Shown here piece by piece: positions 11,245-63,315 of a DNA stretch of 64,000 nucleotides. The notes below the pieces were generated by a model. It was not told where the DNA came from. It worked only from the letters and a program-made list of their open reading frames with translations, and did no database searches. Positions within the stretch are counted from its first letter, which is position 1. Each line of letters starts with the position of its first letter. This DNA is from a virus (taxonomy: Duplodnaviria; Heunggongvirae; Uroviricota; Caudoviricetes): IMG/VR virus record IMGVR_UViG_3300002220_006883. One strand, 5' to 3'. Both the position numbers and the translations under genes were made by a program.

Positions 11245-11293
11245 TTCATATATTGTTTTTATATCAAAATTAAATTGGTTTTTTGATATCTAG

Positions 11294-14426: not shown

Positions 14427-14427
<1 letters not shown>

Positions 14428-21584: not shown

Positions 21585-22700
21585 TTTTGATTGATTTGTT
21601 ATCTTATTTTCTTTTAATCCATTTTTTAATGTGCAATAAGAAATAAAAGAGGATATATTTTCAATTTCTTGATTGTAGATATCTAGAAATTCATTTTTAA
21701 CAATCATGTTAGATGATAATTTACATTTTTCAAAAAGTGCAAAAGATTTTTGCATTATTTCAAATAAATCATATTTTGTTAAGTTCGAATTAAATATACA
21801 AAGGAGTTGAGAAGAAGATTCATCACTTTTAATATTTGTTAGGTGTAATTCTTTAAAATTATTATTAATAAATGATAAAGAAAAATCACTAGCTTCTTTT
21901 GCAGTTTTAGAATGAACTATTGATGGATAATTTTTTTCTAAAAAAGAATAATTTACATCAAAAATAATAGTTCGTTCTTCTGAAATAGAAAACAAGCTAT
22001 TAACATTATCTTTTATCTTAATGCTTTTCCAATATTCTTTATATAGATGTAAATCTTCTTGTTTAATATGTTTTCTGATTCCATTATAAACGGATAAATC
22101 AAACTCTTTAATAACTTCTTTTTCTTCTTTACTAGAGTAATATTTTACATATGAATCTTTTGCTAAAGAATAATGATTATTAAGGAATACAAATAAATTT
22201 TCTTTAAGTTCAAGATATTTATTTTCAGAAATCATTAAATTCAATTCTAATGTTTTAATAAAATCAAAAGGATGAAAGTCTTTATGTTTTGTGAAATCTT
22301 GTTCGAGTGTAAATAAAATATGTTTTTGATATGGGTTATCTTTATTTTTAAATTTGTAATTATCTTTACAGTAGATATTAAAAAGTTCAATCATTCCAAA
22401 ATTTTTAAAAAAAGAATGATGAGCATTTTTAAAATTAGAAAAAGATTCTTTTTTTATGAAAGAATGAATTAACTCTTGTTTAAATGAATGCATATCATGA
22501 ATATAAAAATCGAAGTTTTTATGTTCATTAGTTTGGTTCCATGTTTTTTCAACTTCAGCTAAAAAAATATCATTAACATTTTTTTCCTGCCAATTAACAT
22601 TAAACCTAAAAATTTTTTCATTATCATAAATACTGTAATAAGCACAAAAAGACTTATTTTTTATGAATTTTTCTTGAATTAATTGATTGAGTGGGTTCAT
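21573..22700 (-). CDS. hypothetical protein
   Basis: 375 aa ORF with no recognised motif. Confidence 0.45.
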   Translation of the reverse strand: MNPLNQLIQEKFIKNKSFCAYYSIYDNEKIFRFNVNWQEKNVNDIFLAEVEKTWNQTNEHKNFDFYIHDMHSFKQELIHSFIKKESFSNFKNAHHSFFKNFGMIELFNIYCKDNYKFKNKDNPYQKHILFTLEQDFTKHKDFHPFDFIKTLELNLMISENKYLELKENLFVFLNNHYSLAKDSYVKYYSSKEEKEVIKEFDLSVYNGIRKHIKQEDLHLYKEYWKSIKIKDNVNSLFSISEERTIIFDVNYSFLEKNYPSIVHSKTAKEASDFSLSFINNNFKELHLTNIKSDESSSQLLCIFNSNLTKYDLFEIMQKSFALFEKCKLSSNMIVKNEFLDIYNQEIENISSFISYCTLKNGLKENKITNQSKLKI

Positions 22701-22733: not shown

Positions 22734-23552
22734 TTAAAATTTTGTTTTTAATTTTGGTTTATTGTTTGCAGAATATTCTTCTGTTTTAGCTACAACTTTA
22801 TCATAAAATTGTTTCCATTTTTCTAATTCAGCAACATCATCTGGATCATTTAAATCATAATCTTCAATAGTTTCTTCATCATATGCAGGAAGAATCATTT
22901 CAAATGGTTGGTAGCCATTACCATCTTTTAATGTAGGGTTTGCACCTAATTCCATTAGTTTATCAAAAGATTTTTCTTTACCATGTCCACAAGCATAATG
23001 CATTACAGTTTGATCTGTAGATAAAAAGTTTTTTTCATTAACATTAAAGTTACACTCTTTAACTAAAAATTCCATCACTTCTGTAGATTGAGACATAGTA
23101 GCATAAAATAAACCAGTATTGCCCATTCCATCAGTATGAGTTACATCAACAGGGTTATGTGGGTTACTAATAAGATAAGATACAATATCTTTATTCGGAA
23201 TTTCACATGCTTTTAAAAAAGTATTTTCGCCATTTTTCATATAGGCATTAGGATTTGCTCCGTTTTTTAATGCAAATTCTAAAAACTCCATAGCACCTGG
23301 TAATAATTCATTAGTAAGTTCTTCTTCATCTTTTTCATTTTTTATTCTTTTAACTGCATATTGTGGAAAAAAGAATAAAAGATTATCAAATTCAGAGATT
23401 GGATCTTTTGATGTGGTTTTAGCAAAAGCTTTTAATTCATCAGTAGATTTCATTTTTTCTAAATCTTCTAATAATACTTCAAAATCTCCAGCTTTTAACA
23501 TTGCCCCTAAACTTTTATAGGTTTTTTTAACTTTTGGTTGGTTGTCACTCAT
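22734..23552 (-). CDS. ankyrin-repeat protein
   Basis: ANK-like repeats (…GANPNAY…, …GNTGLFYA…, …GANPTLKDGNG…). Confidence 0.65.
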   Translation of the reverse strand: MSDNQPKVKKTYKSLGAMLKAGDFEVLLEDLEKMKSTDELKAFAKTTSKDPISEFDNLLFFFPQYAVKRIKNEKDEEELTNELLPGAMEFLEFALKNGANPNAYMKNGENTFLKACEIPNKDIVSYLISNPHNPVDVTHTDGMGNTGLFYATMSQSTEVMEFLVKECNFNVNEKNFLSTDQTVMHYACGHGKEKSFDKLMELGANPTLKDGNGYQPFEMILPAYDEETIEDYDLNDPDDVAELEKWKQFYDKVVAKTEEYSANNKPKLKTKF

Positions 23553-23611
23553 TTGGTTTTTCCTTTTTAATTGATATAATTAATTATAACAATAATAAGA
23601 AAAAAAACAAA

Positions 23612-44627: not shown

Positions 44628-44732
44628 AATATTTTCCTTATTGTTATTTAATTATAATGGTTTGTTTTTCTCAGTCAAATGCTTGAAGTTGTTATTATTT
44701 GTGATATTATTAAAAGAAGGAGTTATTATTTT

Positions 44733-45407
44733 ATGGAACAAGAAAAAAAAGAAATAATTATTGGAGCTTATTACGAAACTTTAGATAATAAAATCGTATA
44801 CACATATGGTTCAGGCCCAGATGGAATTAAATACAGATTTGATGATGATTCAGGTGGTCATTTAATATCAAAAGAGGATTTTTTCAAATGGAAAATAAGA
44901 AATGATTTAAGAGATTTTCCAAATGCAAGAGATCCAAGAGTTCCCTATATTTTTGATTTAAATTACGATTTGAAATACACTTCAGATGTTGTTAGATATC
45001 TCAAAGATAATCCAAATGACTCAAATGTGATTGAATTAATAGCAAGCCATGCAAGCGATAATAAAAAATTGAAAAAATATGTTGATAAATATAATAAAGA
45101 TTTAAATAATTTCTTAACAGTAACTGAAACAGTCTACGAATTAGAAACAAAAAACTTCTTTTATAATATTATCGAAAAGAAAAATACTGGATGTATAATA
45201 AAAAGACAAAATAAGAATAATTTAAATTCTGATAAAGCAGATTGGAGTAATCAATATATAACAGAAATTTTATCAGGGGATAAAACTTTTAAAAACAGTT
45301 TAAATACAGATATAGAATATTTACCATCAACAACTGATTGTGTTAAACTAATTGAAAAAGAAGAGAAAAAGGCAAACAAAAACAAAGAAAATAAAAGGAA
45401 GCTCTAA
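44733..45407 (+). CDS. hypothetical protein
   Basis: SD AAGGAG before ATG (MEQEKKEII); a longer variant from 44679 is possible. Confidence 0.45.
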   Translation: MEQEKKEIIIGAYYETLDNKIVYTYGSGPDGIKYRFDDDSGGHLISKEDFFKWKIRNDLRDFPNARDPRVPYIFDLNYDLKYTSDVVRYLKDNPNDSNVIELIASHASDNKKLKKYVDKYNKDLNNFLTVTETVYELETKNFFYNIIEKKNTGCIIKRQNKNNLNSDKADWSNQYITEILSGDKTFKNSLNTDIEYLPSTTDCVKLIEKEEKKANKNKENKRKL

Positions 45408-47829: not shown

Positions 47830-47920
47830 TGGCAGTGAGTAAGAGATTCGAACTCTTGTGCCGGTTTCCCGACCATCATCTTTCCAGGATGTGCCTTTAA
47901 GCCAACTCAGGCAACTCACT
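47830..47920 (-). tRNA. tRNA-Ser (anticodon GGA), class II
   Basis: revcomp AGTGAGT…(anticodon loop CTGGAAA)…long variable arm…AAGAG-TTCGAAT-CTCTT-ACTCACT-G-CCA; encoded CCA. Confidence 0.75.
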
Positions 47921-47926
47921 ATAATC

Positions 47927-48019
47927 TGGAGGAAAGCTAGGGTCCCGACCCCTATCCGTATTTTCTACGAACAAACACATTTCCAGTGTGTTCCAGTTGC
48001 CCCGACTGGTTAACTTTCC
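47927..48019 (-). tRNA. tRNA-Ser(GGA)-like with non-canonical T-loop
   Basis: acceptor GGAAAGT/GCTTTCC-T-CCA; D stem CCA/TGG; anticodon arm ACACA-CTGGAAA-TGTGT; variable arm GTTCGTAGAAAATACGGA; T arm TAGGG-GTCGGGA-CCCTA. Confidence 0.5.
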
Positions 48020-48020
48020 T

Positions 48021-48110
48021 TGGCAGAGGATAACAGAATCGAACTGTCACCGATTCATCATCGATGGTACGGTTTTCAAGACCGCTTAAACACCATGTTC
48101 ACTATCCTCT
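48021..48110 (-). tRNA. tRNA-Ser (anticodon UGA)
   Basis: acceptor AGAGGAT/ATCCTCT-G-CCA; anticodon arm GCGGT-CTTGAAA-ACCGT; T arm GACAG-TTCGATT-CTGTT; long variable arm. Confidence 0.75.
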
Positions 48111-48121
48111 AAACTAAAAAC

Positions 48122-48214
48122 TGGCAGAGGTGGTGAGATTCGAACTCACGCGGGCTTTTTAGTTCCCCTAGCTGTTTTCAAGACAGCCCCCTTAAACCAC
48201 TTGGGTACACCTCT
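48122..48214 (-). tRNA. tRNA-Ser (anticodon UGA), second divergent copy
   Basis: acceptor AGAGGTG/CACCTCT-G-CCA; anticodon arm GCTGT-CTTGAAA-ACAGC; T arm GTGAG-TTCGAAT-CTCAC. Confidence 0.75.
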
Positions 48215-48215
48215 A

Positions 48216-48305
48216 TGGCAGAAGACGTCGGTCCCGACCCGAATCCGTATTTCTACGAACCAACTGATTAGCAGTCAGCGGCTAAACCCTTTAGCTTCAT
48301 CTTCT
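48216..48305 (-). tRNA. tRNA-Ser(GCU)-like with non-canonical T-arm
   Basis: acceptor AGAAGAT/GTCTTCT-G-CCA; anticodon arm GCTGA-CTGCTAA-TCAGT; shares module GTTCGTAGAAATACGGAT..GGGTCGGGACC with 47927-48019. Confidence 0.5.
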
Positions 48306-48310
48306 AAATT

Positions 48311-48400
48311 TGGCGGTGGGCCAGGGAGTCGAACCCTGTGAGCCATTTCCATGACCCTACGGATTAGCAATCCGCTGCATTACCGTTCTGCCAGCCCACC
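48311..48400 (-). tRNA. tRNA-Ser (anticodon GCU)
   Basis: acceptor GGTGGGC/GCCCACC-G-CCA; anticodon arm GCGGA-TTGCTAA-TCCGT; T arm CAGGG-TTCGACT-CCCTG. Confidence 0.8.
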
Positions 48401-49991: not shown

Positions 49992-50561
49992 CTATATTTT
50001 TATTTTTTTCTTTTCTGAATGGAAATTTATTGTTTGATTTAAACTAATAAATAAATCACGAGCATTCAATCTTGCAACCAAATCAATTGAGTTATTCTTT
50101 TTTAATAACTTTTCTAGTTCTAAAGTTTTTTCAATACCGTAATCATCAATAAAATAATCTAAAATTTTTCTTTTTTCCACTGTATCTTTCAAGCAGTTAA
50201 AAAATGCTCCATAATTGGCATAAGAAATATCTGCATGCTCAATAATCTCATTGCTTGTTAAAAGGTATTTAATAAGTGGCAATCTATTACTAGTAACAGC
50301 ACTAATTAATGAATTACTTTTATTTTTTTTGCTAATTAGATTTTCTTGACCAAATTTTTTTGACCAATCAACTAAAGCAAGAATATGTTCCATATAATTT
50401 TTAGATTTATTTAAACAACAAAATTCAAAAATCCTTCCTTCTTTATAATTTAAATTAATAAATTCGATGTTTTTTTCATTATATAAAAAAGATACAGCTT
50501 CAATAGGTGAGGAAAGATAAATATGACATAATTTTTCGTTAATTTCAGTTATTTTGTCCAT
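49992..50561 (-). CDS. hypothetical protein (possibly degenerate ANK-like)
   Basis: 189 aa ORF; weak ANK-like segments. Confidence 0.4.
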   Translation of the reverse strand: MDKITEINEKLCHIYLSSPIEAVSFLYNEKNIEFINLNYKEGRIFEFCCLNKSKNYMEHILALVDWSKKFGQENLISKKNKSNSLISAVTSNRLPLIKYLLTSNEIIEHADISYANYGAFFNCLKDTVEKRKILDYFIDDYGIEKTLELEKLLKKNNSIDLVARLNARDLFISLNQTINFHSEKKKIKI

Positions 50562-50621
50562 AATATATTCAACCTTGTTTTATTTGTATTTTTATGTATT
50601 TTATTTTTGGGAGTCCCAAAA

Positions 50622-50999
50622 ATGAAACATTTTACCACAATTTTACAAAAAGAAGAAAAAATTTTCAACAAAGATATTATTATGAATTCACTAGATAATG
50701 ATATGGATTTATATGCTTTAATTGCTGAAGAGTTTTGTAATTCAAAAGAAAAAAGGCATACTTTAATAAGATTAGCATTAGGTCAAAATAAAGTCGCAGA
50801 TTTAGAAAGAGAACTACATACATTAAAGGGTTTATTTTATACTTTGGGGGCTAAAGATTTTGGAGAAAAAGCAAAGTCAATCGAGTTAACTATAAGAGAT
50901 TTAAATGTATCAATAGAAGAAATTCAAAAAAGTATTGATATAATTTTAAATCTTGATGATCAATTAGTTAAAGCACTAAAGGAAGATTTGCAAAATTAA
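50622..50999 (+). CDS. stand-alone HPt-like (histidine phosphotransfer) domain protein
   Basis: HTLKGLFYTLGAKDFGEKA fits the HxxKG…G HPt signature; ATG at 50622. Confidence 0.5.
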   Translation: MKHFTTILQKEEKIFNKDIIMNSLDNDMDLYALIAEEFCNSKEKRHTLIRLALGQNKVADLERELHTLKGLFYTLGAKDFGEKAKSIELTIRDLNVSIEEIQKSIDIILNLDDQLVKALKEDLQN

Positions 51000-51613
51000 A
51001 TTTTCAACTTCTTTTTTGAAATATCGTTTTCTTCAAGTTCCTCATTTAGAATAGATTGCATTATGAAAGGTGTATTCTTAATTCTATTTATATCCTGTAA
51101 GCTTAATTCAGTTAAATGTTCGTGTAGTTCTTCTATAGGCTTAGAGTAAGGGTTATTTAAAATATAGTCTAATATTTCTTCTATATTAATTTTCATTATT
51201 CTTGAAACACTATGGTTTCCATAATAATCTCGATCAATTTCTTCTTGATCAGTATAAATGAATTGATGAAAACGATAATCGGGAATAAAATAATGATCGT
51301 AATAGTCACAAATCTGTTCCAAATTTTTATTATCAATATTATATCTTGAAAATTCATGTTCTTGAATAATAAAACTATTAATTACTTCACCAATTGTTGA
51401 TTCTGTAATGTAATGAGCATCAGTATAATCAACATCTTCCTTGCTATCTTCCCAACATGAATTACCAGAAACAACCTTAGTAATAGATGTGTAAATTATA
51501 AATTCCCTACTTTCATCACTAAAATCAATTTCTGTGGAATGAGAACATCCAAATAGGCAACGGAAGTTTTCTTTTAATAATTCCCTTAAAAATTCTTTAT
51601 TTATTTTTAACAT
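50996..51613 (-). CDS. hypothetical protein
   Basis: 205 aa ORF. Confidence 0.45.
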   Translation of the reverse strand: MLKINKEFLRELLKENFRCLFGCSHSTEIDFSDESREFIIYTSITKVVSGNSCWEDSKEDVDYTDAHYITESTIGEVINSFIIQEHEFSRYNIDNKNLEQICDYYDHYFIPDYRFHQFIYTDQEEIDRDYYGNHSVSRIMKINIEEILDYILNNPYSKPIEELHEHLTELSLQDINRIKNTPFIMQSILNEELEENDISKKKLKI

Positions 51614-51675
51614 AATATTTTGTACACTTTTTTATTATTTTACGATATAATCCAAAAAAATACCAGGAGATTTTA

Positions 51676-51831
51676 ATGGATCATAAAAATAATCAAGATA
51701 ATTATACCATATCTTTAAAAATGATAGTGGAAGCTCAACAAGAAATTGAAGATTTATTGATAGAATATGAATTGTCTAATATGGAAAGCTTCCCAGAAGC
51801 CAATAAAATATTGAGTAGATTTAAAAAATAA
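51676..51831 (+). CDS. small protein (51 aa), absent from the ORF track
   Basis: strong SD AGGAGA 5 nt before the ATG; MDHKNNQDNYTISLKMIVEAQQEIEDLLIEYELSNMESFPEANKILSRFKK; terminator follows immediately. Confidence 0.45.
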   Translation: MDHKNNQDNYTISLKMIVEAQQEIEDLLIEYELSNMESFPEANKILSRFKK

Positions 51832-51833
51832 TA

Positions 51834-51869
51834 AAAAAACTGCATTTTGCAGTTTTTTTTTATTTACAT
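51834..51869 (+). terminator. rho-independent terminator
   Basis: AAAAAAACTGCATTTTGCAGTTTTTTTTT. Confidence 0.7.
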
Positions 51870-51911
51870 TTCAATTGTAAAATTTTATACACTTAACATA
51901 GTGAGGAAAAA

Positions 51912-53222
51912 ATGTTAAGTGTTATTAAAGAAATTATAGCAAAAAGAAAATCTATATCTTTATTAAAAAAAGGGGTTCCTTTTAATGATGATAGGTTTAA
52001 CTCTTTTAGAAAAAACAAAGCTATTATCCTAATAGCTTTAGATTACGATTTAAACACATTAAATTATGTTGAAAAAAGTATATTGTTAGATAAAGACATT
52101 ATACTTAAATCCATTCAAAAAAATCCATTAAATCTTCAGATGCATTCTGATGAAGAAATTATTGGCAATAAAGAAATTATATTAAATGCAATTAAGTTGG
52201 ATTATAAAAACATAAGGTTCGCTTCAGAAAATTTAAAAAATGATATTTCTTTTGCTAAAGAAATTTTAATTAAGGAACCAGATTGCCTTGAGTTTTTTTC
52301 AAACAAAATAAAAGACAATAAGGAAATTATTGACTTAGTTTTAAGTAAATTTTTTCATGGAAAAATTTTTAAATATATTGGTGAAAAATTTAAAGATGAT
52401 AAAGATGTTGTGTTAAAAGAAATGACTCATCATGGCGATATGTTTGAGTTTGTAAGTGATAGATTGAAGGCAGATGAAGAGGTTTTGATAAGTTCTTTAA
52501 AGAGCAGTAATGGTAATTCTATTATCTTTGCCAGTCCGACACTTAAATCTAATATGGATATAGTAAAAAATGCACTACAATATATAAATTATTCAAGCAT
52601 AAATGTTTTTAAAGATTTGGGGATGTTGGCTCAATCAAATAAAGAAATTGCATTACTGGCAATAAGCAAAAAACCTGAATCTTATTTGTATGTAAGTGAA
52701 GATTTAAAGAACGATATAGATATAGTTAAAACAGCAATCAAATTAGACGGTTCTTTGTTTAAATTTATACCCTTAAGTTTTAAACAAAACAAAGAAATAT
52801 TTTTATTGGCTATCAAGCAATATGCTCTAGCTATTGAATTTGCTACAGAAGAATTTAAAAATAATCTAGAAGTTGCTAAAATAGTATTGGCTAGTAAATA
52901 TGATAAAACCTTGTCTTTCTTTAGTGATGAAATAAGAGATAACAAAGAACTTGTATTGTTCGCTGTTAAAAATCATGCATCTCAATTAGAGTTTGCCAGT
53001 AAAAGATTAAAGATGGATTATGATTTGGTAAAGCAAGCTATAACTCAATCAGGAGTTACATATCGTTTTATTGATGAGAATTTAAAGTCAGATCCATATT
53101 TAATTAAAAAAGCAATAGAATGTAGCACTGGTTTAGCATTAAACTATATTGATGAAAAATATTTAAATCATCCAGAAATAAAAGAATTTGTTTATTCTTA
53201 TAAAAATAGATACAGAAATTAG
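51912..53222 (+). CDS. DUF4116-repeat protein
   Basis: many ~30 aa repeats of form (K/N)(E/D)(I/V)(I/V)L.A(I/V)K….L.FAS..LK.D. Confidence 0.55.
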
Positions 53223-53380
53223 TCTTTATGTTCTACTGAGTTTTTTCCTTCAAGTCCTTCTTTGAAACCATGTATTGAGCTTCCAACATCATGACCTATA
53301 TTTTTTAATTTTTTTGTTCCAAAAATAAGAGCTACTACAACTAAAACAATTAACCAATGCCAAATACTGAATCCACCCAT
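53219..53380 (-). CDS. tatA: twin-arginine translocase subunit TatA/E (53 aa)
   Basis: manual translation [43 protein letters not shown]…; SD AAGGAG upstream; too short for the ORF track. Confidence 0.8.
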
Positions 53381-54131
53381 TTTATTTCTCCTTTTATTGA
53401 TTAGAACTATATCATCTTTTTATCATATATCAATAGTGTTACATAATATTCTAATAAATAAAGAATAGAGTTTAAATAATTAAATATTAAGATAAATCTA
53501 AACGATGCCTTGAACGGCAAAGCTTACCCTAACCCAATTCAAAAGAATCAAGTTGATGCATTTGCACGTAAAAACAAGACATATGCCCCAGTTACGGCCT
53601 TGCTATATTTAGGTAAGCAAGTCTCTAGTTCAGTTCTCCTAAAGAACCCATAGCCTGGTCTAGATTCAGCTTCAGTGGTAGTTTGCTATGTCCCATTGTA
53701 CTACCTTCGGTAATCATTTACCTTATTAACCTTTATTCCAGCTTTCCTTTATAGATGGCTATCCGTAGATAGGTTGTCATTTTGTATTTACCATCGCCTC
53801 AACGTTAAATGTTATCTGGAGGTTATAATGTCCCAATCGGGAAATGAAAAAGCCTCATTACTGAAACTTAATCTTTTTTGACGCATAAGACATTAGGTCG
53901 CTAAATCTAGGCTAAGACCATGATTCTGTCAAATAGGTTTTTGCTTAAATTTTAAGCAAAACAAGTGCTATTTAAGAAAAACTCTATATATAATAATGGG
54001 TTACAGCTACCAAACTTTTTTTAAACTTTTTTTGCTGTTTTGGCCTTGACACAAAAATATTCAAAAATATGATTCTTTTTCAAACAAAATAAAAAAGTTC
54101 AGCTATAATAAACAAAACACAAAGGAGTGAT

Positions 54132-54353
54132 ATGAATAAAGAAGATATTGCGAATATAAAAATAATCTTATATGGAAGTAGTGAAGACTTCCAAAAACTT
54201 TATTTACAGAAGGAGTCTACTGAACCTGACTACATAGATAAATTGCTAAAAAAAGTTCATGAAAAAGTGGAATATCTAGTCGTAGAGAAAAAACTAGAAA
54301 AAATGCAAGATTTTCCTGAAGTAGAAAAAATTCTGAAAAAAATAAAGGATTAA
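54132..54353 (+). CDS. hypothetical small protein
   Basis: 73 aa ORF with SD AAGGAG. Confidence 0.5.
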   Translation: MNKEDIANIKIILYGSSEDFQKLYLQKESTEPDYIDKLLKKVHEKVEYLVVEKKLEKMQDFPEVEKILKKIKD

Positions 54354-54356
54354 ACA

Positions 54357-54731
54357 ATGAACAATCATGATAAAAATAATTTAAATTTTCTCTTAAGTGT
54401 AGATATTTGTACACTTTATGATTGGTATGAAAAAGTAGACGAAGATGATCATTTATATGCAATAGAGCTATTGACTAAATTTAATTTGGAAAATATTGAC
54501 ATCAATAAGAATGGATTAGATGAAAAAGATTTAGACAACTTAAAATTCTTATTGAATATAGACAATAAAACACTTTATGATTGGTATGAAAAAGTAAATG
54601 AAGAAGACCACTTATATGCAATAGAATTATTGACTGCTTTCAAGCAAGAAAAAATCAATTATGAAATTGAACAGGTGCTATCTTTAATGAAGGAATTCAC
54701 AGAAGTTAAGAAAATATTAAATAAGTTCTAA
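54357..54731 (+). CDS. small protein with internal tandem duplication
   Basis: two ~45 aa repeats (LNFLLSVDICTLYDWYEKVDEDDHLYAIELLTKF and LKFLLNIDNKTLYDWYEKVNEEDHLYAIELLTAF). Confidence 0.5.
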   Translation: MNNHDKNNLNFLLSVDICTLYDWYEKVDEDDHLYAIELLTKFNLENIDINKNGLDEKDLDNLKFLLNIDNKTLYDWYEKVNEEDHLYAIELLTAFKQEKINYEIEQVLSLMKEFTEVKKILNKF

Positions 54732-54736
54732 TTGAT

Positions 54737-55102
54737 TTGATTAATTTTGTTGATTATAATCTAAGGATGAAAAAAGAAAAAAACAAATATGAAAAATTGT
54801 TAAAGTTGGGAACAACAGCAGGAGTTGTTGCAATGTCTGCGTCCCCAACTTTAATGGCTGCATATAGTGGACTAATCATTCAACCAATCATGAAAATTGG
54901 AAACCCTTTTCAAAATGGATTAAAATTAACAATATTGTCAGCATTAGCAACATTCAATAGTAATGAGTTAGGTAAAAAAGCACATATTTGTGCAGAAAAT
55001 ACATTTGATAATGTTGAGAAAAAAATTGAAAAAGTGTTAAAGAGTATAAGACACAAAAAACAAAATAATAGGAATTACGTGAATCACCTCGACCTAAAGT
55101 AA
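54737..55102 (+). CDS. hypothetical protein with hydrophobic segment
   Basis: 121 aa ORF; could instead be the region overlapping the TnpB-associated RNA. Confidence 0.35.
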   Translation: MINFVDYNLRMKKEKNKYEKLLKLGTTAGVVAMSASPTLMAAYSGLIIQPIMKIGNPFQNGLKLTILSALATFNSNELGKKAHICAENTFDNVEKKIEKVLKSIRHKKQNNRNYVNHLDLK

Positions 55103-55117
55103 AAAACTTCAAGTTTT
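55102..55117. terminator. short bidirectional hairpin between convergent genes
   Basis: AAAAACTTCAAGTTTT. Confidence 0.4.
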
Positions 55118-55121
55118 CAAC

Positions 55122-57074
55122 TTAAATTAACGAGGCTTCTGTGTGATTTCTCACACCATCTTCTTTTGATTTAGCTAATTTAGCATTGGGGAGAAGTTCA
55201 GTAACGACCCCTATTTTATATTCATCTTCAACTATATTTTTAACTAACTTATAGTTGATGGTTTTAGTTCTACTGCATTGATAAACATTATCTTTGCCTA
55301 ACTTATTTCTTATGGTTTTATTTAATAACCTTGATTTAATGATTTTTGCTGCATTACTGTCTGCATTTATCTTTACTTTGTGATTAGCACAGGCTGGATT
55401 TCTACAGATAAATTCTTCTTGCTTAGTTCTGTTATTTCTAGATATGTAATGACAGACTGAACATTCCTGACTGGTATAAGCTGGATTGATAAAATGGGTA
55501 AAAATACCTTGTTTTTCAGCCATACTAGCTACCCAATGTTTTATCTGTCCTAATCTCAATAGTCTAGATAAACGACTGTATTTAATCTTTATACCTTTAT
55601 GTTCATAATAGCTTTTATCATTCAGTATATTCAAATCTTCAAATACTAAATGTAAGATATCTTTACTTTTCCAATCCTTGATTAATCCAGATAAATAAGT
55701 TTTTAATAAACTTTCATTACTGCGTAGTAATTTCTCATAACGGTATTTTTGTTTAACAGTTCTTTCTTCTGTTTTGATACTGAATAATTCTACAATTTCA
55801 TTTAAATTATCTATAAATCTATTTTTATTGTTGGAATTTAATATATCAGAATAAGTATGACCATTAGAATCAGCTATTAAATTGTGTTTTAAATTTAAAT
55901 CACAACCTAATGTATTTAATTCTGTTGGATTAATATTGGTTTTATTGATTAAATTATTTTCAATAACTTTAGCCAGATTATTCTGTTGTTCATAATTAAA
56001 GATTATATGAATTTTTCTGCTCTTAGAGTTATTCCTTAATTGTTCATATTTAATCAATATTTGTGGATTATCTTTAATTAATACATTATCTATGGATTTA
56101 CCAATACTTTTTAATCTAGATTTATTAAAAATTAATGGTAAATAGATGAAATTATCTTCATTATATTTATCTAGTAATTCTTGATAATTATCTTTAGTTT
56201 TAGTTTTATTATTTAACTTAGGTTCTCTAGAAGAAAGAGTTGATACTTTTCTAACTTTAATAAAATATTGATAATCTTTATTAGATAAATCTTTCACAAT
56301 GGATAATTGAGCATTATCTAAATGTCTAGCATGGGTTCCAGTTTGATAAATGGCTAATTTAACCTTGCTGATTAACCTTAGTTTTTTATCAATAATTAAC
56401 TGAATTAATCTATTGTAAATTAAAGGTTTATTGATTTTAAACTGTTTAATTTCATGATAGTTAGCAATAAGTTTGTTATAGGATTTAATTAATCTTTCTA
56501 ATTTACTGATTTCTTTATTAATATCTTCAGTTGAATTATCTTTATTATCCAATAAGTTTTTATTATGACTTAATTCAAGGTTATATTTAGATAAATAAGT
56601 AGTAAGTTGAATTAGTTTATCATCAATATTGAAATCTAAAGCATAAAACTTATTATTAACGATTAAGTTAGACTGAGAATTAATAAATAAAGCTATATTA
56701 TTGATATTAGATTTAGACTTAGAAACAATGAATTTAGCTTTATCTAAATATCTGGTAGTAGTCTCAGAATAATGCCCTGCAATCTCCTGGAATATAGTTT
56801 GTCTTTCCCAAGAATTTAACTGAGAATTATCTAAGAATTTATAATGAGTAAGAAAAGGCTTATAATCTGAGACTAAAGATAATAGATTATCATAGCAATA
56901 TTGAGAAATGATATTTTTATAGTTTTTAGTATTATCAATTAAAGCGAAAAATTCATTAAATTTATCAACATTACAAACTCTAGAATCAATCGTAACACGT
57001 GATGACTTAACATCAGGTTTAAACAAGTTAATGTTTTTATTCTTAACGATTGATTTCTTTAATTTCTTCATCAA
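55122..57074 (-). CDS. tnpB: TnpB/Cas12-like RuvC nuclease, 650 aa, with N-terminal extension (IS200/IS605 OrfB-type)
   Basis: RuvC-I LGCDLN (D392), RuvC-II VFEDLN (E479, 87 aa spacing as in canonical TnpB), CxxC…CxxC zinc finger, RuvC-III INADSNAAKII (D572). Confidence 0.8.
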   Translation of the reverse strand: MMKKLKKSIVKNKNINLFKPDVKSSRVTIDSRVCNVDKFNEFFALIDNTKNYKNIISQYCYDNLLSLVSDYKPFLTHYKFLDNSQLNSWERQTIFQEIAGHYSETTTRYLDKAKFIVSKSKSNINNIALFINSQSNLIVNNKFYALDFNIDDKLIQLTTYLSKYNLELSHNKNLLDNKDNSTEDINKEISKLERLIKSYNKLIANYHEIKQFKINKPLIYNRLIQLIIDKKLRLISKVKLAIYQTGTHARHLDNAQLSIVKDLSNKDYQYFIKVRKVSTLSSREPKLNNKTKTKDNYQELLDKYNEDNFIYLPLIFNKSRLKSIGKSIDNVLIKDNPQILIKYEQLRNNSKSRKIHIIFNYEQQNNLAKVIENNLINKTNINPTELNTLGCDLNLKHNLIADSNGHTYSDILNSNNKNRFIDNLNEIVELFSIKTEERTVKQKYRYEKLLRSNESLLKTYLSGLIKDWKSKDILHLVFEDLNILNDKSYYEHKGIKIKYSRLSRLLRLGQIKHWVASMAEKQGIFTHFINPAYTSQECSVCHYISRNNRTKQEEFICRNPACANHKVKINADSNAAKIIKSRLLNKTIRNKLGKDNVYQCSRTKTINYKLVKNIVEDEYKIGVVTELLPNAKLAKSKEDGVRNHTEASLI

Positions 57075-57214
57075 TTTAGATTACTTAATTAAATTAATTT
57101 TGTCAATTAAATATTGAGTTAATTTATAATTAGTAATACCAAACCTAAAGGTTTGTGTAACTTACATCACCGCCCCAAAGGGCGATGTTTTTCGTTACTA
57201 GAGGATAATAAACA

Positions 57215-57254
57215 AAAGCCCCTCCGAAAACGTGTTGTTTTTTGTGGGGCTTTT
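57215..57254. terminator. hairpin or terminator upstream of the tnpB-like gene
   Basis: AAAAGCCCC…GGGGCTTTT. Confidence 0.4.
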
Positions 57255-57330
57255 GTTTATTAAACCTTATAAATCAAGAAGTTAGGTAAAACTTTCCTTG
57301 CTTACGAAAAAGTTTTTACCATTAAAATGA

Positions 57331-57385
57331 AAAAAGCCTTGAATTTCAAGGCTTTAGTATTACTTCTCAAAATTTAGCAACACAA
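57331..57385 (-). terminator. conserved terminator-hairpin repeat, copy 3
   Basis: AAAAAAGCCTTGAATTTCAAGGCTTTAGTATTACTTCTCAAAATTTA, ~90% identical to 7693-7745; a second hairpin follows. Confidence 0.6.
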
Positions 57386-57438
57386 TTTGAGAGTGGCTTG
57401 GGGTTCCCAAGGCTTTTCACAAAATCAATAAAATAATT

Positions 57439-57873
57439 TTACTTTTTAGAAACTTTATTCAAAATTTCATTAGAGACAGACTTCGCTTTCTTTTGTTCTT
57501 CATCTGTAAATTTACCATTAGAAATTAAAAGGTTTACTCTGTTTTTACAGTATTTTAGTGTTTCAATATGTGTATCTACAGGTAGTGCTTCAATTTTTCT
57601 ACTAGAGAGTTTTGCTTTTTCCTTAGATTCTTTTTCAAGATTGGAAGTAATATTTAGAAACAAAACAGAATGGTATGCGATTTCATGAATAACTTCACTT
57701 TTATTACTTGAGCCACTTCTAGCTCCAGCAATAGCCATACCAACTAACAATTCACCACACATTCTATCTTGAAGAACAGGTGTTTCACTTGTAAAGATTT
57801 TAGGTAGCTCTGGAGTTTGAGCATAAACTAAAGAACTTAAAGTTAAGAGTGAAGATAATAAAATTTTTTTCAT
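57439..57873 (-). CDS. secreted hypothetical protein
   Basis: signal peptide MKKILLSSLLTLSSLVYA. Confidence 0.5.
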   Translation of the reverse strand: MKKILLSSLLTLSSLVYAQTPELPKIFTSETPVLQDRMCGELLVGMAIAGARSGSSNKSEVIHEIAYHSVLFLNITSNLEKESKEKAKLSSRKIEALPVDTHIETLKYCKNRVNLLISNGKFTDEEQKKAKSVSNEILNKVSKK

Positions 57874-57928
57874 TGTTTATCCTTATAAAGTTTGTGATTA
57901 TATACTATTTTTATATTTTTGTGTTAAA

Positions 57929-58813
57929 TTATTCTTCACATTGATTAGAGCTTGAGAATAATTTTTGTTGTTGAGTTACAAAAGAATAAGAGTAAGAATT
58001 GTTATATAGTTCTAATTTTAAAATTCCAAAATCAAAATAACTGTTTTTAACATCTAGGTTAAATGGATTAACTTTATTACTAATTGGGACTCCACCAGTA
58101 CCTACGACAAAATGTTTGGTTTTGTTAATCATCTTGCTCTCTTGAAAATGATGGTCATGACCAGATAAAATAATAGTTGGTGGAGATTTATTAATTACCT
58201 TCATCAACTCTTTCACAGAAGATTTAATTGGTCTTAATCCACTACTGATATATGGATGGTGCATAGAAATAATTGTACATGTTTTTTTATTTTTCAAAAT
58301 ATTTTCTAGCCAGATTATTTGTTCTCTATTATCTTCATTTTCTAAATTAGTATCAAGAAAAATAAAACTCCAATTATTTTTGTTAAAGCTGTAATAATTA
58401 TAAAAGCCATTAGTTATTTGATGATAACTATTTTGTTCTTGTTTTTTAACTAAATCTTGATTGTTAGCAAAATATTCAAAATAAGGTGTTGCTTTGTCTG
58501 CATAATACTCATGGTTTCCTACTGTCGGAAATGTTTTGTTTTTAATTTTGCCAAAATATTTACCATAACATTTTTCTAATTTCTTTTGGGTTCCTTCTTC
58601 ATATACTAAATCTCCAAGTGGGAAGAAGAAATCAAAATTATTTTTAGAAACTAGATTCGATACTGATTTAACACCAATTTCTTTATCTCGCTCACAATAT
58701 GCAATGTCACCAACAGTTAAAACAGTTATTGGCTTTTCTGTCGCCAGAACACTACAGGATAAAAATAAAATAGATAAACCTATAAATTTAAATTTCATAA
58801 AATACACTTTCAA
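57929..58813 (-). CDS. secreted calcineurin-like metallophosphoesterase
   Basis: signal peptide; GDIAY, GNHEY and GHDHH metallophosphatase motifs. Confidence 0.7.
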   Translation of the reverse strand: MKVYFMKFKFIGLSILFLSCSVLATEKPITVLTVGDIAYCERDKEIGVKSVSNLVSKNNFDFFFPLGDLVYEEGTQKKLEKCYGKYFGKIKNKTFPTVGNHEYYADKATPYFEYFANNQDLVKKQEQNSYHQITNGFYNYYSFNKNNWSFIFLDTNLENEDNREQIIWLENILKNKKTCTIISMHHPYISSGLRPIKSSVKELMKVINKSPPTIILSGHDHHFQESKMINKTKHFVVGTGGVPISNKVNPFNLDVKNSYFDFGILKLELYNNSYSYSFVTQQQKLFSSSNQCEE

Positions 58814-59000
58814 GTAAAGATAAATATTATTTTATTTTTAGAAAAATAACAATATGAAAACTTTAATATTTTATTTTTTTTGTTTGACAATGTTAGCTTT
58901 TTAAACTATTGTACGGAGATTGTTTGGAAAAGAAACAGATTGAATTTTAAAAAAAATCTGTTAAAATATTCTTTCCAGTAAAAAAAATTAAGGAGTTTTT

Positions 59001-61289
59001 ATGCAAATAACAAAAAGAGATGGAATAAAGCAAGAATTAGATTTAAATAAGATTCATGCTGTGTTAACTTGGGCATGTGAAGGTCAAAATGATGATGCTT
59101 TACATCCAATTAAGGGAGTTTCTATTTCCCAAATCGAAATGCGTGCTCAATTGCATTTTTATGATGGTATGCCAACCAAACAAATACATGAAACATTAAT
59201 TAAGGCTGCTTCTGAATTAATTTCTGAAGATTTTCCAAATTATGATCAGGTTGCTGCTCGTTTAGTTTGGTTTGCTGTTCGTAAAGAAGCATTCCGTAAT
59301 AATTTGCCACCACATTTATCAAAAATCATTCATACAAACGTTGATAATGGTGTTTATGCTAGAGATATTTTAGATTTATATACAGAAGAAGAAATAGATG
59401 AATTAAATGCAATGATTGATCATCGTCGTGATGATTTGTTTAAATATGCTGGTGCAGAACAGATGCGTAAAAAGTATTTGGTTCAAAACCGTAAAACTAA
59501 AAAGGTATTTGAGTCATTCCAATTCCCTTACATTATGGTGGCAGCATTGTTATTTGGTCGTTACCCTAAAAATACAAGAATGAAATATGTTAAAAAATAT
59601 TATGATTTAATTTCTCAACATTATATTTCTCTTCCAACTCCAATTATGGCAGGATTAAGAACAAAGGTTAAACAGTTTAGTTCTTGCACATTAATAGAAT
59701 CTGGAGACTCATTAAAATCTATTAATGCAGCAGCAGCAGCAATTGTGGATTATGCTTCACGTAAAGCGGGTATTGGTTTAAGTATTGGTTCTATCCGTGC
59801 GGAAGGTCAAAAGGTTCGTGGTGGTGATGCTGTAACAACTGGTGTAATTCCTTTTGCTAAATATTTTAATGGAGCATTAAAATCTTGTTCACAAGGTGCT
59901 GTTCGTGGTGCATCAGCAACTTTTAACTATCCAGTATGGCACTTAGAATTCGAAAGACTTATTGAATTGAAAAACAATAAGGGAACAGAAGAAACTCGTT
60001 TAAGAACTGTAGATTACTGTATTCATTTAAATAAATTATTTTACGAGCGTTTAGTAAAAAAAGGTGACATTACATTCTTTAGCCCTGAAGAAGTGCCTGA
60101 TCTATACAAGGCTTTCTATTCAAGTGATTATAAAAACTTTGAAAAGTTATATAAACAATATGAAAAAGATACTTCTATCACAAAAAAATCTTTGCCAGCA
60201 GTTCAAGTGTTCACTAAAATAATGCAAGAGCGTTTTGAAACTGGTCGTATTTATATTATGAATGCTGATCATGTAAATTCTCACGGTTCATTCTATGAAC
60301 CAATCAAAATGACAAATCTTTGTACCGAGATCACCTTGCCTACTGAACCAGTCACTTATCCTGGTGATACACAATATGCTGATGAAAATGGTTTGATTGC
60401 TCTTTGCACATTATCCGCTATTAACTGGGGTAAATTTACTCCATTTGGTGAATTAGACCAAGAAAGCTCTACACCACATCGTCAAGAAATGAGACTTAAA
60501 GATGCATGTGAAATGGCTGTCCGTGGATTAGATGCTCTTTTGGATTATCAAGAATACCCAGTAGAAGCAGCACGTCGTCACAGTATGAGATACCGTCCAT
60601 TAGGTGTTGGTATTATTGGTTTCGCTCACTGGTTAGCCAAAGGGAGATTATATTGGGGTGAAGAAAATACTTTAGTAGAAGTAGAAGCTATGATGGAAAA
60701 AATGGCTTATTACTTAACAGAGGCATCTATTGATTTAGCTGAAGAATTTGGTGGTTTAACTGTTAAGACAAAATATCATGATGGAATTTTTCCTATTGAT
60801 ACTTCAGTATTAAAAGCTAAAACAAAAATGGATTGGGGAAGATTAAAAACTAAAGCAAAACAATTTGGTATTAGAAATGCCACATTAATGGCTTTGATGC
60901 CATCAGAAACATCATCACAATTATCTAATGAAACAAATGGTATTGAGCCACCTAGAGATATGCTTTCTATTAAGGGTTCAAAAGAAGGTGTTTTACCACA
61001 AATTGTTCCAGAATACTCTAAATTAGCAGCATTCTATCAGACATTATGGCAAGTTCCTTCACAAGATTACTTGAAAACATTGGCAATTTTACAGAAGTAT
61101 ATAGATCAAGCCATCAGTGTAAATACTTCTTACGATCCAAGTAAGGGTGAAATAAAAATGAGTAGATTGATTGATGATTTATTGTTTTCTTATAAATTAG
61201 GTCATAAAACACTTTATTATTCAAATACTAGAGATGGTAGTGGAGATGAAACTGATGATGGATGCGATTCAGGTGCATGTAAGATCTAA
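59001..61289 (+). CDS. nrdA: ribonucleotide reductase class Ia alpha subunit
   Basis: 762 aa; ATP-cone N-terminus; catalytic-site region; C-terminal Cys pair (CDSGACKI). Confidence 0.95.
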   Translation: MQITKRDGIKQELDLNKIHAVLTWACEGQNDDALHPIKGVSISQIEMRAQLHFYDGMPTKQIHETLIKAASELISEDFPNYDQVAARLVWFAVRKEAFRNNLPPHLSKIIHTNVDNGVYARDILDLYTEEEIDELNAMIDHRRDDLFKYAGAEQMRKKYLVQNRKTKKVFESFQFPYIMVAALLFGRYPKNTRMKYVKKYYDLISQHYISLPTPIMAGLRTKVKQFSSCTLIESGDSLKSINAAAAAIVDYASRKAGIGLSIGSIRAEGQKVRGGDAVTTGVIPFAKYFNGALKSCSQGAVRGASATFNYPVWHLEFERLIELKNNKGTEETRLRTVDYCIHLNKLFYERLVKKGDITFFSPEEVPDLYKAFYSSDYKNFEKLYKQYEKDTSITKKSLPAVQVFTKIMQERFETGRIYIMNADHVNSHGSFYEPIKMTNLCTEITLPTEPVTYPGDTQYADENGLIALCTLSAINWGKFTPFGELDQESSTPHRQEMRLKDACEMAVRGLDALLDYQEYPVEAARRHSMRYRPLGVGIIGFAHWLAKGRLYWGEENTLVEVEAMMEKMAYYLTEASIDLAEEFGGLTVKTKYHDGIFPIDTSVLKAKTKMDWGRLKTKAKQFGIRNATLMALMPSETSSQLSNETNGIEPPRDMLSIKGSKEGVLPQIVPEYSKLAAFYQTLWQVPSQDYLKTLAILQKYIDQAISVNTSYDPSKGEIKMSRLIDDLLFSYKLGHKTLYYSNTRDGSGDETDDGCDSGACKI

Positions 61290-61387
61290 AAAATCTAATT
61301 AAAATCAAACAAGAAACCTCTTTTTAGAGGTTTCTTTATTTATTCTTAATTTTTTATTTGTTATAATAATTGAAAAGTGGAATAAAT

Positions 61388-62311
61388 ATGAATAAAGAAA
61401 AAATTCAAGAAATAGCACAAAACTTCCTAAATGAACCATATAGTGATGAAACACTAGGAAGGCTCGCAGAAAAAAATCATAAAAAGTTTTTAAATAATTT
61501 ATCAAAATTAGATGAGAGGCAGATTAATAAAATTTTAAAAGCTTACCCAGAATATAGCAATAAGGTTTTGGATGGTTGGCATTCTTTACATTTTGTAGCT
61601 TTATTAAATGACCCTAATATATTAGAGAGTTTTATGAAAAATGCTATTAATAATGGTTTAACTTCTTTACCAAAAACAACAAAAGAAAAAAAGGATATAC
61701 CTGAAAATATAAGCTTTTTAAATTTTTGTGCTGCAAATAACTGTGATAAATCTTTTGTCAAAATTTTAACATACTTAAGCAATCCAGAAGAACAAAATTT
61801 TAATGAAGCAATAATCTATTCTCTTCATTATGGTAATTCTAAGGTTATTAAGTTTTTAGAAAAAGTAATGGTTAAAGAAGATATTCAATCAACTATGTTA
61901 AGTTATTTTAATGATAGGCCACACAGATTAGATTTCTTATGGAAAACAACCACCAGTGTTGAGAAACTAAATAATATGGGGGTTGATATAAAATATGAGG
62001 AAGATAACAAAAGGAATTATTTTACTTTAGTTTTAGAGTCAATGAATAATAATTATTATGATATTGAGCAAAAGGGCTTTGACTATATTAGAAATACAAT
62101 AGATCAATTTATGGATAGTGGATTTTCTTTGGATATTCCAGATAAAAAAGGAAACATGCCAAGAGCTAGTTTGGAATTATTTATTAAAAATACTTATTCT
62201 AATAGTTTACAAGAAAAATTAGAGGAATATATGCTACTATTAAACAGTAAATCTCTGAATAATGATTTAGTTAAAAAAAATAATGTAGAACCTAAAAAAT
62301 TTAAAATTTAA
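61388..62311 (+). CDS. ankyrin-like repeat protein
   Basis: ANK-like segments (…SLHFVALLNDPNILESFMKNAINNG…, …LNFCAANNCDKSFVKIL…); ATG at 61388. Confidence 0.45.
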   Translation: MNKEKIQEIAQNFLNEPYSDETLGRLAEKNHKKFLNNLSKLDERQINKILKAYPEYSNKVLDGWHSLHFVALLNDPNILESFMKNAINNGLTSLPKTTKEKKDIPENISFLNFCAANNCDKSFVKILTYLSNPEEQNFNEAIIYSLHYGNSKVIKFLEKVMVKEDIQSTMLSYFNDRPHRLDFLWKTTTSVEKLNNMGVDIKYEEDNKRNYFTLVLESMNNNYYDIEQKGFDYIRNTIDQFMDSGFSLDIPDKKGNMPRASLELFIKNTYSNSLQEKLEEYMLLLNSKSLNNDLVKKNNVEPKKFKI

Positions 62312-63315
62312 ATTTTAAGTTTTTTCTTATTAGGAGTTTGTGATTCTTTGATAATATTATTTAAAATATCTTTCTCTTGATTATTTAGTGTTGCCTTACC
62401 TAAATGTTTTAGTGCCTTAGTTCTAAGTAGTTTTTCATCCATGTTTTTATACATAAATAACGGATTGTTTAATAATAATTGCTCTTTATCTTCATGGGAG
62501 GCTAACCTACCTGCATAATTGTTATGAGTTGATTGCTTATTCATATGAATTTTAAAAAAGTTTTTAATAGATTGGGGTAAATTCTTAGATGGAGCCAAAG
62601 TGTTGATGAAAACATTGGTTTGAGATAGTGATTCACAGAAGAAGTTAAGTTCATATAAGTTGTTCGCTCTACATGAGTTCCAAATAGTGCAAAAAGAATT
62701 GAGTATTTCTTTTTGAGAAGGTTGAAAACCTAATTCAATAGCTAGACAAAAGATAAGTGATGAGTCTTCAATCTTAGTTTTTAAAAAATCTAATTTTATT
62801 TTGTTTTGAATAACAAGTTCAGCTATATCATCTAATGTTTGGTTGTATTTAATAATATTTTCTGAATCATTAGGTGAATTTGTTTTATCGTAATAAGATT
62901 TAATTTTTTCGCTAAGAGCATAAGAAAATTTATCTTTTAGATATTCAGGATTTGAGTAGTTAATTTTATGTTTTTTAAAAATTTCAACTCCATATGCTTG
63001 CTCAATTTTAAACATATATAAGTGATTGGTATTTTTATAGTTTTTAGGAGAAACTTCAAAAACCTTGTCTATAACAGTAAAAATATTATCCTTTTGAATT
63101 ATTTTTTGCCCTGGATCTTTGTAGTATGTAGAATTTAAGTTTTCTAATGATTGAATACAGTAATCCAAAGTTGTTTTTAAAATAAAACGAATATGATAAT
63201 TAGATAAGCCTTCATATTGAAGATTTTCTAATAATGGATTTAAATTTAATATGGATTCTTTAAATCTTTTATTTTCAATCCATAATTCTATTTTAGAGAG
63301 ATTGTCATTAATCAT
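62308..63315 (-). CDS. hypothetical protein
   Basis: 335 aa ORF; start overlaps the next gene by 4 nt. Confidence 0.45.
   Translation of the reverse strand: MINDNLSKIELWIENKRFKESILNLNPLLENLQYEGLSNYHIRFILKTTLDYCIQSLENLNSTYYKDPGQKIIQKDNIFTVIDKVFEVSPKNYKNTNHLYMFKIEQAYGVEIFKKHKINYSNPEYLKDKFSYALSEKIKSYYDKTNSPNDSENIIKYNQTLDDIAELVIQNKIKLDFLKTKIEDSSLIFCLAIELGFQPSQKEILNSFCTIWNSCRANNLYELNFFCESLSQTNVFINTLAPSKNLPQSIKNFFKIHMNKQSTHNNYAGRLASHEDKEQLLLNNPLFMYKNMDEKLLRTKALKHLGKATLNNQEKDILNNIIKESQTPNKKKLKI

Follow-up and report, generated by a model that had tools for sequence, protein, structure and literature searches.

What does a 649-amino-acid (aa) RuvC nuclease do where neither a transposase gene nor a CRISPR array stands beside it? 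The question is raised by tnpB, a gene in the viral record IMGVR_UViG_3300002220_006883, of which we analysed a stretch of 64 kb (hereafter, the window; all coordinates refer to it as a whole). The original prediction described a solo gene for a TnpB/Cas12-like nuclease with an expanded N terminus, and proposed domestication, a transition toward a Cas12 effector or a Fanzor-like origin. Our comparison shows that the gene does not stand alone but is part of an element that has conserved ends and a target motif, with locus-specific flanks from which guides would be derived. The minus strand from 55079 to ~57207 is thus very probably a ~2.13-kb non-autonomous, tnpB-only member of the IS200/IS605 insertion sequences (IS; IS1341 type) with an enlarged TnpB.

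A protein search returned 35 homologues of 42–100% identity, the full-length members being 645–705 aa long. Residue conservation was read from a family alignment of 30 sequences, DNA was compared for 13 loci including the window (12 for the left end), and gene tables with Pfam annotations were used for 10 related loci. The features discussed below, including the open reading frame (ORF) of tnpB and a neighbouring one, are listed in the order in which tnpB is read, with lengths in nucleotides (nt).

57208–57212, minus strand: target motif and putative transposon-adjacent motif (TAM) TTTAT, directly 5′ of the left end.
57205–57209, minus strand: alternative target reading ATTAT, which applies if the element begins at 57204.
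57075–57207, minus strand: left end (LE), kept in 12 loci of differing genomic context.
57188–57191, minus strand: putative left guide tetranucleotide AAAA, abutting the hairpin foot on its 5′ side and invariant in the left-end alignment.
57168–57187, minus strand: left subterminal hairpin CATCGCCC-TTTG-GGGCGGTG, with ATGTAAG after it and 17 nt between it and the target motif.
57140–57155, minus strand: second hairpin of the left end, CAAACC-TTTA-GGTTTG, with a T-rich run after it.
57078–57106, minus strand: promoter with TTGACA (57101–57106), a 17-nt spacer and TAATCT (57078–57083).
55122–57071, minus strand: tnpB ORF, 649 aa from ATG; an upstream TTG at 57074 would give 650 aa.
55281–55292, minus strand: GATAATGTTTAT (codons KDNVY), at the same position in 12 of the 13 loci.
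55079–55212, minus strand: predicted omega-RNA scaffold and right end (RE), ~134 nt, overlapping the 3′ end of tnpB.
55188–55211, minus strand: scaffold stem S1, GGGG-TCGTTACTGAACTTCT-CCCC, with an invariant 16-nt loop.
55174–55184, minus strand: variable hairpin S2.
Between S2 and the downstream hairpins, minus strand: linker AAAAGAAG.
55141–55156, minus strand: clade-specific hairpin inside the scaffold, present only in the window and loci L006 and L008.
55087–55135, minus strand: right-end hairpin S3, CCTCG...CGAGG, with a 39-nt loop that holds the stop codon.
55079–55086, minus strand: terminus TGATTCAC; the element stops at TTCAC.
55063–55078, minus strand: putative guide flank GTAATTCCTATTATTT, antisense to the 3′ end of the neighbouring ORF.
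54737–55102, plus strand: neighbouring small ORF, whose last eight codons (VNHLDLK and stop) come from the right end of the element.

The right boundary is exact. Every copy ends in GAAG, a hairpin CCTCGTC...GACGAGG and TGATTCAC, and immediately after TTCAC (55079 in the window) the flanks are wholly unrelated at all 13 loci. On the left, TTTAT directly precedes the conserved sequence at 11 of 12 loci, and what lies farther upstream is again unrelated. The search for further copies therefore yields both junctions, TTTAT/CC... on the left and ...TGATTCAC on the right. From the target motif inward, the left end is ordered as TTTAT, ~13 variable nt, AAAA, an 8-bp GC-rich hairpin, ATGTAAG, a second hairpin and the promoter. 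Both of the hairpins in the original prediction exist, and that near the start of tnpB is indeed a hairpin of an IS605-type left end; the one placed at 55143–55162 is not the right-end hairpin but the clade-specific stem of the scaffold (55141–55156), the true one being CCTCG...CGAGG, with TGATTCAC after it.

Covariation supports the left hairpin. Across the alignment, 85% of cells are paired, with 14 double-sided changes against 5.1 in shuffled alignments; none of 500 shuffles reaches 14, and slid controls collapse. A T·T mismatch recurs at stem position 6 of both end hairpins. At the position of the second left-end hairpin, most loci carry a hairpin of unrelated sequence, which may act as a terminator and shield the element against transcription entering from outside. 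The closest sequenced relative, L006 (87% identity), has the promoter, but in its 267 nt of available upstream sequence (L006, 1–267) there is no recognizable GC-rich left hairpin, only an AT-rich, remnant-like palindrome. Either the left end of L006 has decayed or its subclade uses a different one.

The neighbouring ORF at 54737–55102 provides evidence of insertion that resembles an unoccupied site. Its homologues P0088 (98% identity) and P0089 (80% identity) end in ...NYIN and ...KYIN. Joining position 55078 to 57208, such that the flank follows TTTAT directly (TTTAT/GTAATTCC), gives ...NYINKSP, which matches the unoccupied-site C terminus ...NYIN to the residue in this protein-level comparison. 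The left junction therefore falls after TTTAT (57212–57208), leaving three extra nucleotides before CCTCT. At the 13 loci no TTTAT repeat, and hence no target duplication, is found 3′ of the right end, and the two termini, CCTCT... and ...TTCAC, do not form inverted repeats.

These properties are those of the IS1341 group of IS200/IS605, which likewise has imperfect subterminal hairpins at both ends without terminal inverted repeats, inserts 3′ of a short specific motif (TTTAT/TTAT here) and carries a tnpB that is read from the left end toward the right. In IS608, cleavage occurs at TTAC, 19 nt 5′ of the left hairpin, and at TCAA, 10 nt 3′ of the right one, and a 4-nt guide directly 5′ of the hairpin foot reads the cleavage site, AAAG pairing with TTAC (PMC3201880); TTAT is a frequent left cleavage site of IS605 and IS1341 elements (PMC9956272). 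The corresponding sites here are TT(T)AT at 17 nt and TCAC at 8 nt, and the tetranucleotide at the left foot is AAAA rather than AAAG, with GAAG at the right foot. By the IS608 rule, AAAA would pair position by position with TTAT. GAAG and TCAC at the right end are both invariant, hence there is no covariation between them. The element differs from IS608 and the IS1341 group in having no tnpA in view, in a TnpB that is ~250 residues longer than usual, in an ORF that in many copies reaches within 5 nt of the right terminus and in a promoter geometry that implies a leaderless mRNA.

The promoter itself is held in a constant register at 13 of 13 loci: TTGACA or TTTACA, a spacer of 17–18 nt, TAnnnT and, 6–8 nt on, the start codon (6 nt in the window, where the ATG of tnpB follows the −10 box). 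No Shine–Dalgarno sequence precedes the tnpB start at these loci. Because the register is shared throughout, we regard the promoter as real and the tnpB mRNA as probably leaderless, a prediction from promoter geometry. A generic promoter scan returned 18 sites against 19 expected in DNA of 26% GC, so that the call rests on positional conservation.

The gene is what the original prediction took it to be in its catalytic core. The true start is almost certainly the ATG at 57071, because all homologues begin MKKLKK and the database entry P0001 is 649 aa long. The product contains LGCDLN (D392), VFEDLN (E479) and INADSNAAKII (D572), which supply, in sequence order, the Asp of RuvC-I, the Glu of RuvC-II and the Asp of RuvC-III, with 87 residues between the first Asp and the Glu; all three residues are invariant in the family alignment, confirming both the ORF and its motifs. 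The predicted zinc finger is present and its four cysteines are likewise invariant, but its pattern is C538-x2-C541...C557-x4-C562, with a second pair in the window copy of the form CxxxxC rather than the CxxC first described. The domain scores 46.8 bits against the zinc-finger TNB model of Pfam (PF07282, Cas12f1-like; cut-off 26.3). Ratios of non-synonymous to synonymous substitution rates (dN/dS) are 0.16–0.27 for the whole gene and 0.24–0.37 over the first 240 codons, and comparison with the closest relative gives 0.24. The catalytic triad is intact and under purifying selection.

A guide RNA encoded at the 3′ end of tnpB, as originally proposed, is supported by a conserved, covarying predicted scaffold at 55079–55212. 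RNAalifold finds compensatory changes in 6 of its 14 pairs, including pairs of S1 and the right-end hairpin, and per-sequence folds agree with the scaffold model. A covariance model built on the scaffold gives one strong match per element (60–97 bits) and none elsewhere in the window. The scaffold remains conserved in L057 and L059, where the module lies 3′ of the stop codon, and identity at synonymous codons, ~0.55 in the background, is 0.81 in S1 and 0.75 in GATAATGTTTAT. Non-coding conservation in those two loci, together with synonymous constraint, thus indicates that the scaffold is conserved at the nucleotide and not the protein level. An Rfam scan of the locus (E up to 10) returned chance matches only and no known omega-RNA family.

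Within this framework, individual parts vary. S2 is a hairpin at a fixed position in 9 of the 13 copies, and its sequence is different in nearly every one. The clade-specific hairpin is bordered by a duplicated AGAAG, and its single variant is compatible with G·U pairing. In the window copy, a 39-nt insert in the loop of the right-end hairpin carries the stop codon and, when folded, lengthens the stem; L051 and L057 have other inserts at the same site. We also considered pairing of the S1 loop (CUUCU) with the AGAAG linker as a pseudoknot, which is unsupported: loop variants in L052 and L055 are uncompensated.

In several copies the tnpB ORF spans the entire scaffold and stops at a TGA or TAA within TGATTCAC, 5 nt from the terminus, and this read-through yields a recurrent C-terminal peptide, GVVTELLP...EAPSFRAG. 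Because of these read-through ORFs, most of the ~70-aa C-terminal tail, which the original prediction had taken as part of the expanded protein, is translated guide-RNA scaffold and not a protein domain. Upstream of the scaffold, GATAATGTTTAT is invariant at every third-codon position although synonymous divergence (dS) between copies exceeds 1, which argues for a role of the nucleotide sequence itself, ~70 nt upstream of S1, perhaps as the guide RNA's 5′ part or as an internal promoter. As to the latter, GATAAT within GATAATGTTTAT was examined as a possible −10 element of an internal guide-RNA promoter, and neither a conserved −35 box nor a partner sequence was found.

By analogy with characterized TnpB systems, the flank at 55063–55078 would serve as the guide. 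This guide-coding flank is different at every one of the 13 loci, and the 16-mer of the window has no second match at two or fewer mismatches within the window. ISDra2- and ISYmu1-type TnpBs offer the closest functional parallel: they share the D-E-D triad with its 87-residue D-to-E spacing, the TNB zinc finger and the WED–REC–RuvC order; their omega-RNA (reRNA) has a scaffold that likewise shares sequence with the 3′ end of tnpB and extends to the right terminus, where it stops; and, as predicted here, their guide derives from the flank and their T-rich 5′ TAM is the same as the transposon target. The element differs from them in the length of its protein (649 against ~400 aa), an approximately doubled REC with a coiled-coil hairpin, inserts in WED, an unrelated scaffold sequence without an Rfam match and a protein score below the NCBIfam TnpB cut-off.

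Together, these features suggest a life cycle that follows the established paradigm of TnpB guides and donor-site cleavage (PMC8612924, PMC10278001). A Y1 TnpA supplied in trans would move the element as single-stranded DNA, binding the similar subterminal hairpins at both ends, cutting on the left after TTTAT (17 nt 5′ of the hairpin) and on the right after TCAC (8 nt 3′), and reinserting it 3′ of another TTTAT without target duplication. The single gene would be transcribed from the conserved promoter as a probably leaderless mRNA encoding the enlarged TnpB. This mRNA or its 3′ part would become the guide RNA, with the scaffold from 55212 to 55079 and the guide GTAATTCCTATTATTT... supplied by transcription that continues into the flank. 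After excision, the TnpB–RNA complex would cut the rejoined donor site (TTTAT plus flank) and force repair from an element-bearing copy, so that the element is preserved.

What sets this element apart is the N-terminal half of its nuclease. The first RuvC Asp lies ~190 residues later than in standard TnpB. The NCBIfam model guided_TnpB (NF040570) aligns residues 251–582 of the query with profile positions 80–389, and in standard 432-aa relatives only residues 385–588 align, with their 202–405. Because profile and relatives align so far into the query, the Asp is truly displaced and the start is not miscounted: an ordinary 432-aa TnpB is not colinear with the protein over its N terminus, and the enlarged TnpB-family nuclease of the original prediction stands. 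By these sequence comparisons the family is a divergent, enlarged branch of TnpB. Databases label it ‘transposase’ or give it no name.

An AlphaFold (AF2) model of the tnpB product has a predicted local distance difference test (pLDDT) score of 76.6 and the WED–REC–RuvC–TNB fold. In order along the protein, its parts are as follows:

Residues 21–30: WED strand (predicted model).
Residues ~36–235: enlarged, all-helical REC, including a coiled-coil hairpin at 150–215 (predicted model).
Residues 248–363: WED barrel with helical inserts (predicted model).
D392, E479 and D572: RuvC.
C538, C541, C557 and C562: TNB zinc finger.
Residues 595–650: low-confidence tail, with pLDDT below 50 for residues 622–650.

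The REC thus spans ~200 aa against the usual ~100. The expansion is functional protein rather than junk: dN/dS is low there too. When the first 250 residues were searched alone, only 39 proteins matched among 1.84 billion representatives, and the clade is therefore rare. A group of ~546-aa TnpBs on IMG/VR contigs (L025, L032–L040) is colinear with residues 37–615 (hhalign probability 99.9%, 26% identity) and shares the first REC helices. It is also transposon-borne, with a conserved 3′ end ...TTTAATTCTTCGGA followed by divergent flanks; it differs in being ~100 residues shorter, lacking parts of the 120–235 helical insert, and in having other end sequences and no match to our covariance model. 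The extra REC and WED mass is a lineage trait, partly common to relatives of ~550–620 aa.

Family and copy data bear on whether the element moves. The neighbouring genes differ at every locus with a gene table: the window also encodes an NAD-dependent DNA ligase, DnaK and an MCP, and related loci carry genes for type IV pilin, a type II secretion system ATPase and tRNA synthetase. A further copy, P0002 (91% identity), apparently lies on the same 347.7-kb contig, and P0009 is truncated; copies apparently from this genome are 9–15% diverged. The 87%-identical cluster represented by L006 contains 72 distinct variants, of which all those listed are on contigs of 2.0–4.7 kb, element-sized as expected because repeats break assemblies. 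This sister cluster suggests proliferation elsewhere. An IMG/VR scan for the invariant S1 loop gave no match, and thus no sign of a phage-borne element; there is no close relative among GTDB species representatives. The closest outgroups, located on metagenome contigs and viral contigs of IMG/VR, are TnpBs of 432–550 aa, some of which occur several times on a contig. One such contig, IMGVR_UViG_3300007220_000010 (234 kb; L026, L028–L031 and L039), holds at least six copies of a 432–434-aa TnpB distant from the query, an IS burden that is high for a putatively viral genome.

Several observations weigh against an IS1341-type element, and some of them concern this copy in particular. The 39-nt insert in the right loop and the shortened C terminus mean that the window copy may be immobile. 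It also has three extra nucleotides, TAT (57205–57207), before the conserved CCTCT... at 57204, and the homologue ending ...NYIN implies a stop codon where the joined window sequence reads AAA. L006 has no recognizable left hairpin and that of L050 is disrupted. The guided_TnpB score of 69.4 bits is below the cut-off of 100. Only diverged copies are linked to this genome, so recent transposition is unsupported here. Finally, TnpA is found neither in the window nor beside relatives, and mobility would need an unseen partner. On this last point the original prediction was correct: a crude motif scan detected no HUH...Y (Y1) transposase ORF in the window, and no Y1_Tnp domain occurs among the neighbours at the 10 related loci.

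Some of these points would fit a decaying relic, in which element and nuclease no longer function in this genome. The irregular left junction, the right-loop insert and the truncated tail of the window copy, as well as the divergence among copies apparently from this genome, favour such decay. Against it, no stop codon interrupts the 649 codons of the ORF, although such codons arise readily in AT-rich DNA, every catalytic residue is retained and dN/dS against the closest relative remains 0.24. Loop inserts occur at the same site in the intact copies L051 and L057, and that of the window folds as a stem extension. We consider a relic unlikely.

Domestication, in which TnpB has lost its transposon role and become a host RNA-guided nuclease or regulator, is somewhat less probable still. 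It would account for the absence of a nearby tnpA, the low number and divergence of copies in this genome, purifying selection, the degenerate left ends of L006 and L050 and a REC lobe enlarged as in Cas12 lineages. In exapted TnpBs, guide and genomic partner are both fixed. Here, by contrast, the guide-coding flank differs at each locus and genomic contexts are unrelated, whereas both ends, the target motif and the cleavage-site and guide tetranucleotides are conserved across 12–13 loci. The intact triad is a further point against it, and invariance of the triad together with guides that differ at every locus also separates the family from TldR and other nuclease-dead TnpB regulators. Conserved ends and differing guides thus speak against the domesticated gene first suggested.

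It is very improbable that the family stands midway toward Cas12 or forms a cryptic type V system with CRISPR-like or split guide RNAs. This reading draws on structural likeness: fold searches place CasLambda and Cas12f at the top, ahead of ISDra2 TnpB, the nearest solved structures by sequence are Cas12f proteins, Cas12f2 is the runner-up among NCBIfam matches and 649 aa falls within the range of small Cas12 proteins. CasLambda and Cas12f are comparable in size, with a REC that is likewise enlarged. However, the sequence likeness to Cas12f does not extend beyond the common RuvC/TNB core (the matches cover only the TNB/RuvC-III region) at 13–17% identity. No array-like direct repeats are present in 50000–62000, that is, 5 kb either side of the gene, which agrees with the earlier reading that no CRISPR array is near and leaves the proposed transition without an array. 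The gene tables of related loci likewise show no cas1, cas2 or cas4 domain, the domain scan of the window having covered two flanking ORFs, and the RNA module is a single scaffold that ends at a transposon terminus.

That a host-associated bacterium took up a Fanzor-like gene from a eukaryote or giant virus is scarcely credible. The AT-rich host (~26% GC) with many ankyrin and DUF4116 proteins suggests a life with eukaryotes, Fanzors share the TnpB/RuvC fold and Fanzor1 is similar in size. In fold searches, however, Fanzor2 comes level with TnpB, behind CasLambda, Cas12f and a number of further Cas12 effectors, and no Fanzor appears among sequence matches. The promoter is of bacterial sigma-70 type, the ends are of IS608 type, neighbouring genes are bacterial, the closest outgroups are those 432–550-aa TnpBs, and the protein is no closer to Fanzor than to its prokaryotic relatives.

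Other features of the window and related loci were recorded along the way. Ankyrin- and DUF4116-repeat proteins are encoded at 23534–26332 and 51912–53222, and ankyrin genes lie beside L050, L052 and L053; these proteins and the GC content of ~26% suggest that the hosts are bacteria living with eukaryotes. In L052, a small ORF (2345–2938) downstream of rtcB has faint matches to LAGLIDADG homing endonucleases and directly precedes the element, so that two selfish elements may lie side by side. Five tandem tRNA-Ser genes (two GGA, two UGA and one GCU anticodon) occupy 570 nt at 47830–48400 on the minus strand, an unusual clustering of isoacceptors for one amino acid. Eight of the 69 window ORFs of at least 100 aa share a basic C-terminal motif K/R-K-x-K-I/L (...KKKLKI, ...KKKIKI, ...PKKFKI), namely 5010–5669, 14427–14990, 21573–22700, 44679–45407, 49992–50561, 50996–51613, 61388–62311 and 62308–63315; the ending may be a common sorting or secretion signal of an effector-like set. 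A terminator-like palindrome (AAAGCCTTGAAATTCAAGGCTTT with flanks) recurs in at least three places (57330–57376, 7694–7740 and 11176–11249) at 81–94% identity and resembles a small repeat, either REP-like or a shared bidirectional terminator. ORF 54357–54731 contains an internal direct repeat of 128 nt (74% identity, 54369–54655) that duplicates a module of ~50 aa (LNxDxxTLYDWYEKVxEEDHLYAIELLT).

The IS1341-type element that we describe is a complete, unusually large and rare instance of a well-known kind, not a new system. A gene barely recognized by curated models can now be annotated as the nuclease of such an element with exact ends, and its C terminus illustrates that the ‘tails’ of TnpBs can be mere translation of an overlapping RNA gene. 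Its interest is moderate and lies in a REC expansion within a transposon-borne nuclease, a compact scaffold overlapped by the ORF and a leaderless promoter geometry. More tentatively, a rare clade of TnpBs may have grown a Cas12-sized REC, with its coiled-coil hairpin, while still working as a transposon nuclease, and have combined it with one of the shortest scaffolds (~68–135 nt), a read-through ORF and a leaderless mRNA. If so, the clade would be an independent, pre-CRISPR case of the growth in size usually tied to Cas12 evolution, and the enlarged TnpB possibly a monomeric editor with a T-rich TAM; with 649 aa, a compact scaffold and a predicted TTTAT TAM, the nuclease is a candidate to test in that role. 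The accretion of REC helices is regarded as a hallmark of the path from TnpB to Cas12 (PMC10691335). It also occurs in elements that stay ordinary transposons, and size alone is therefore no evidence of domestication.

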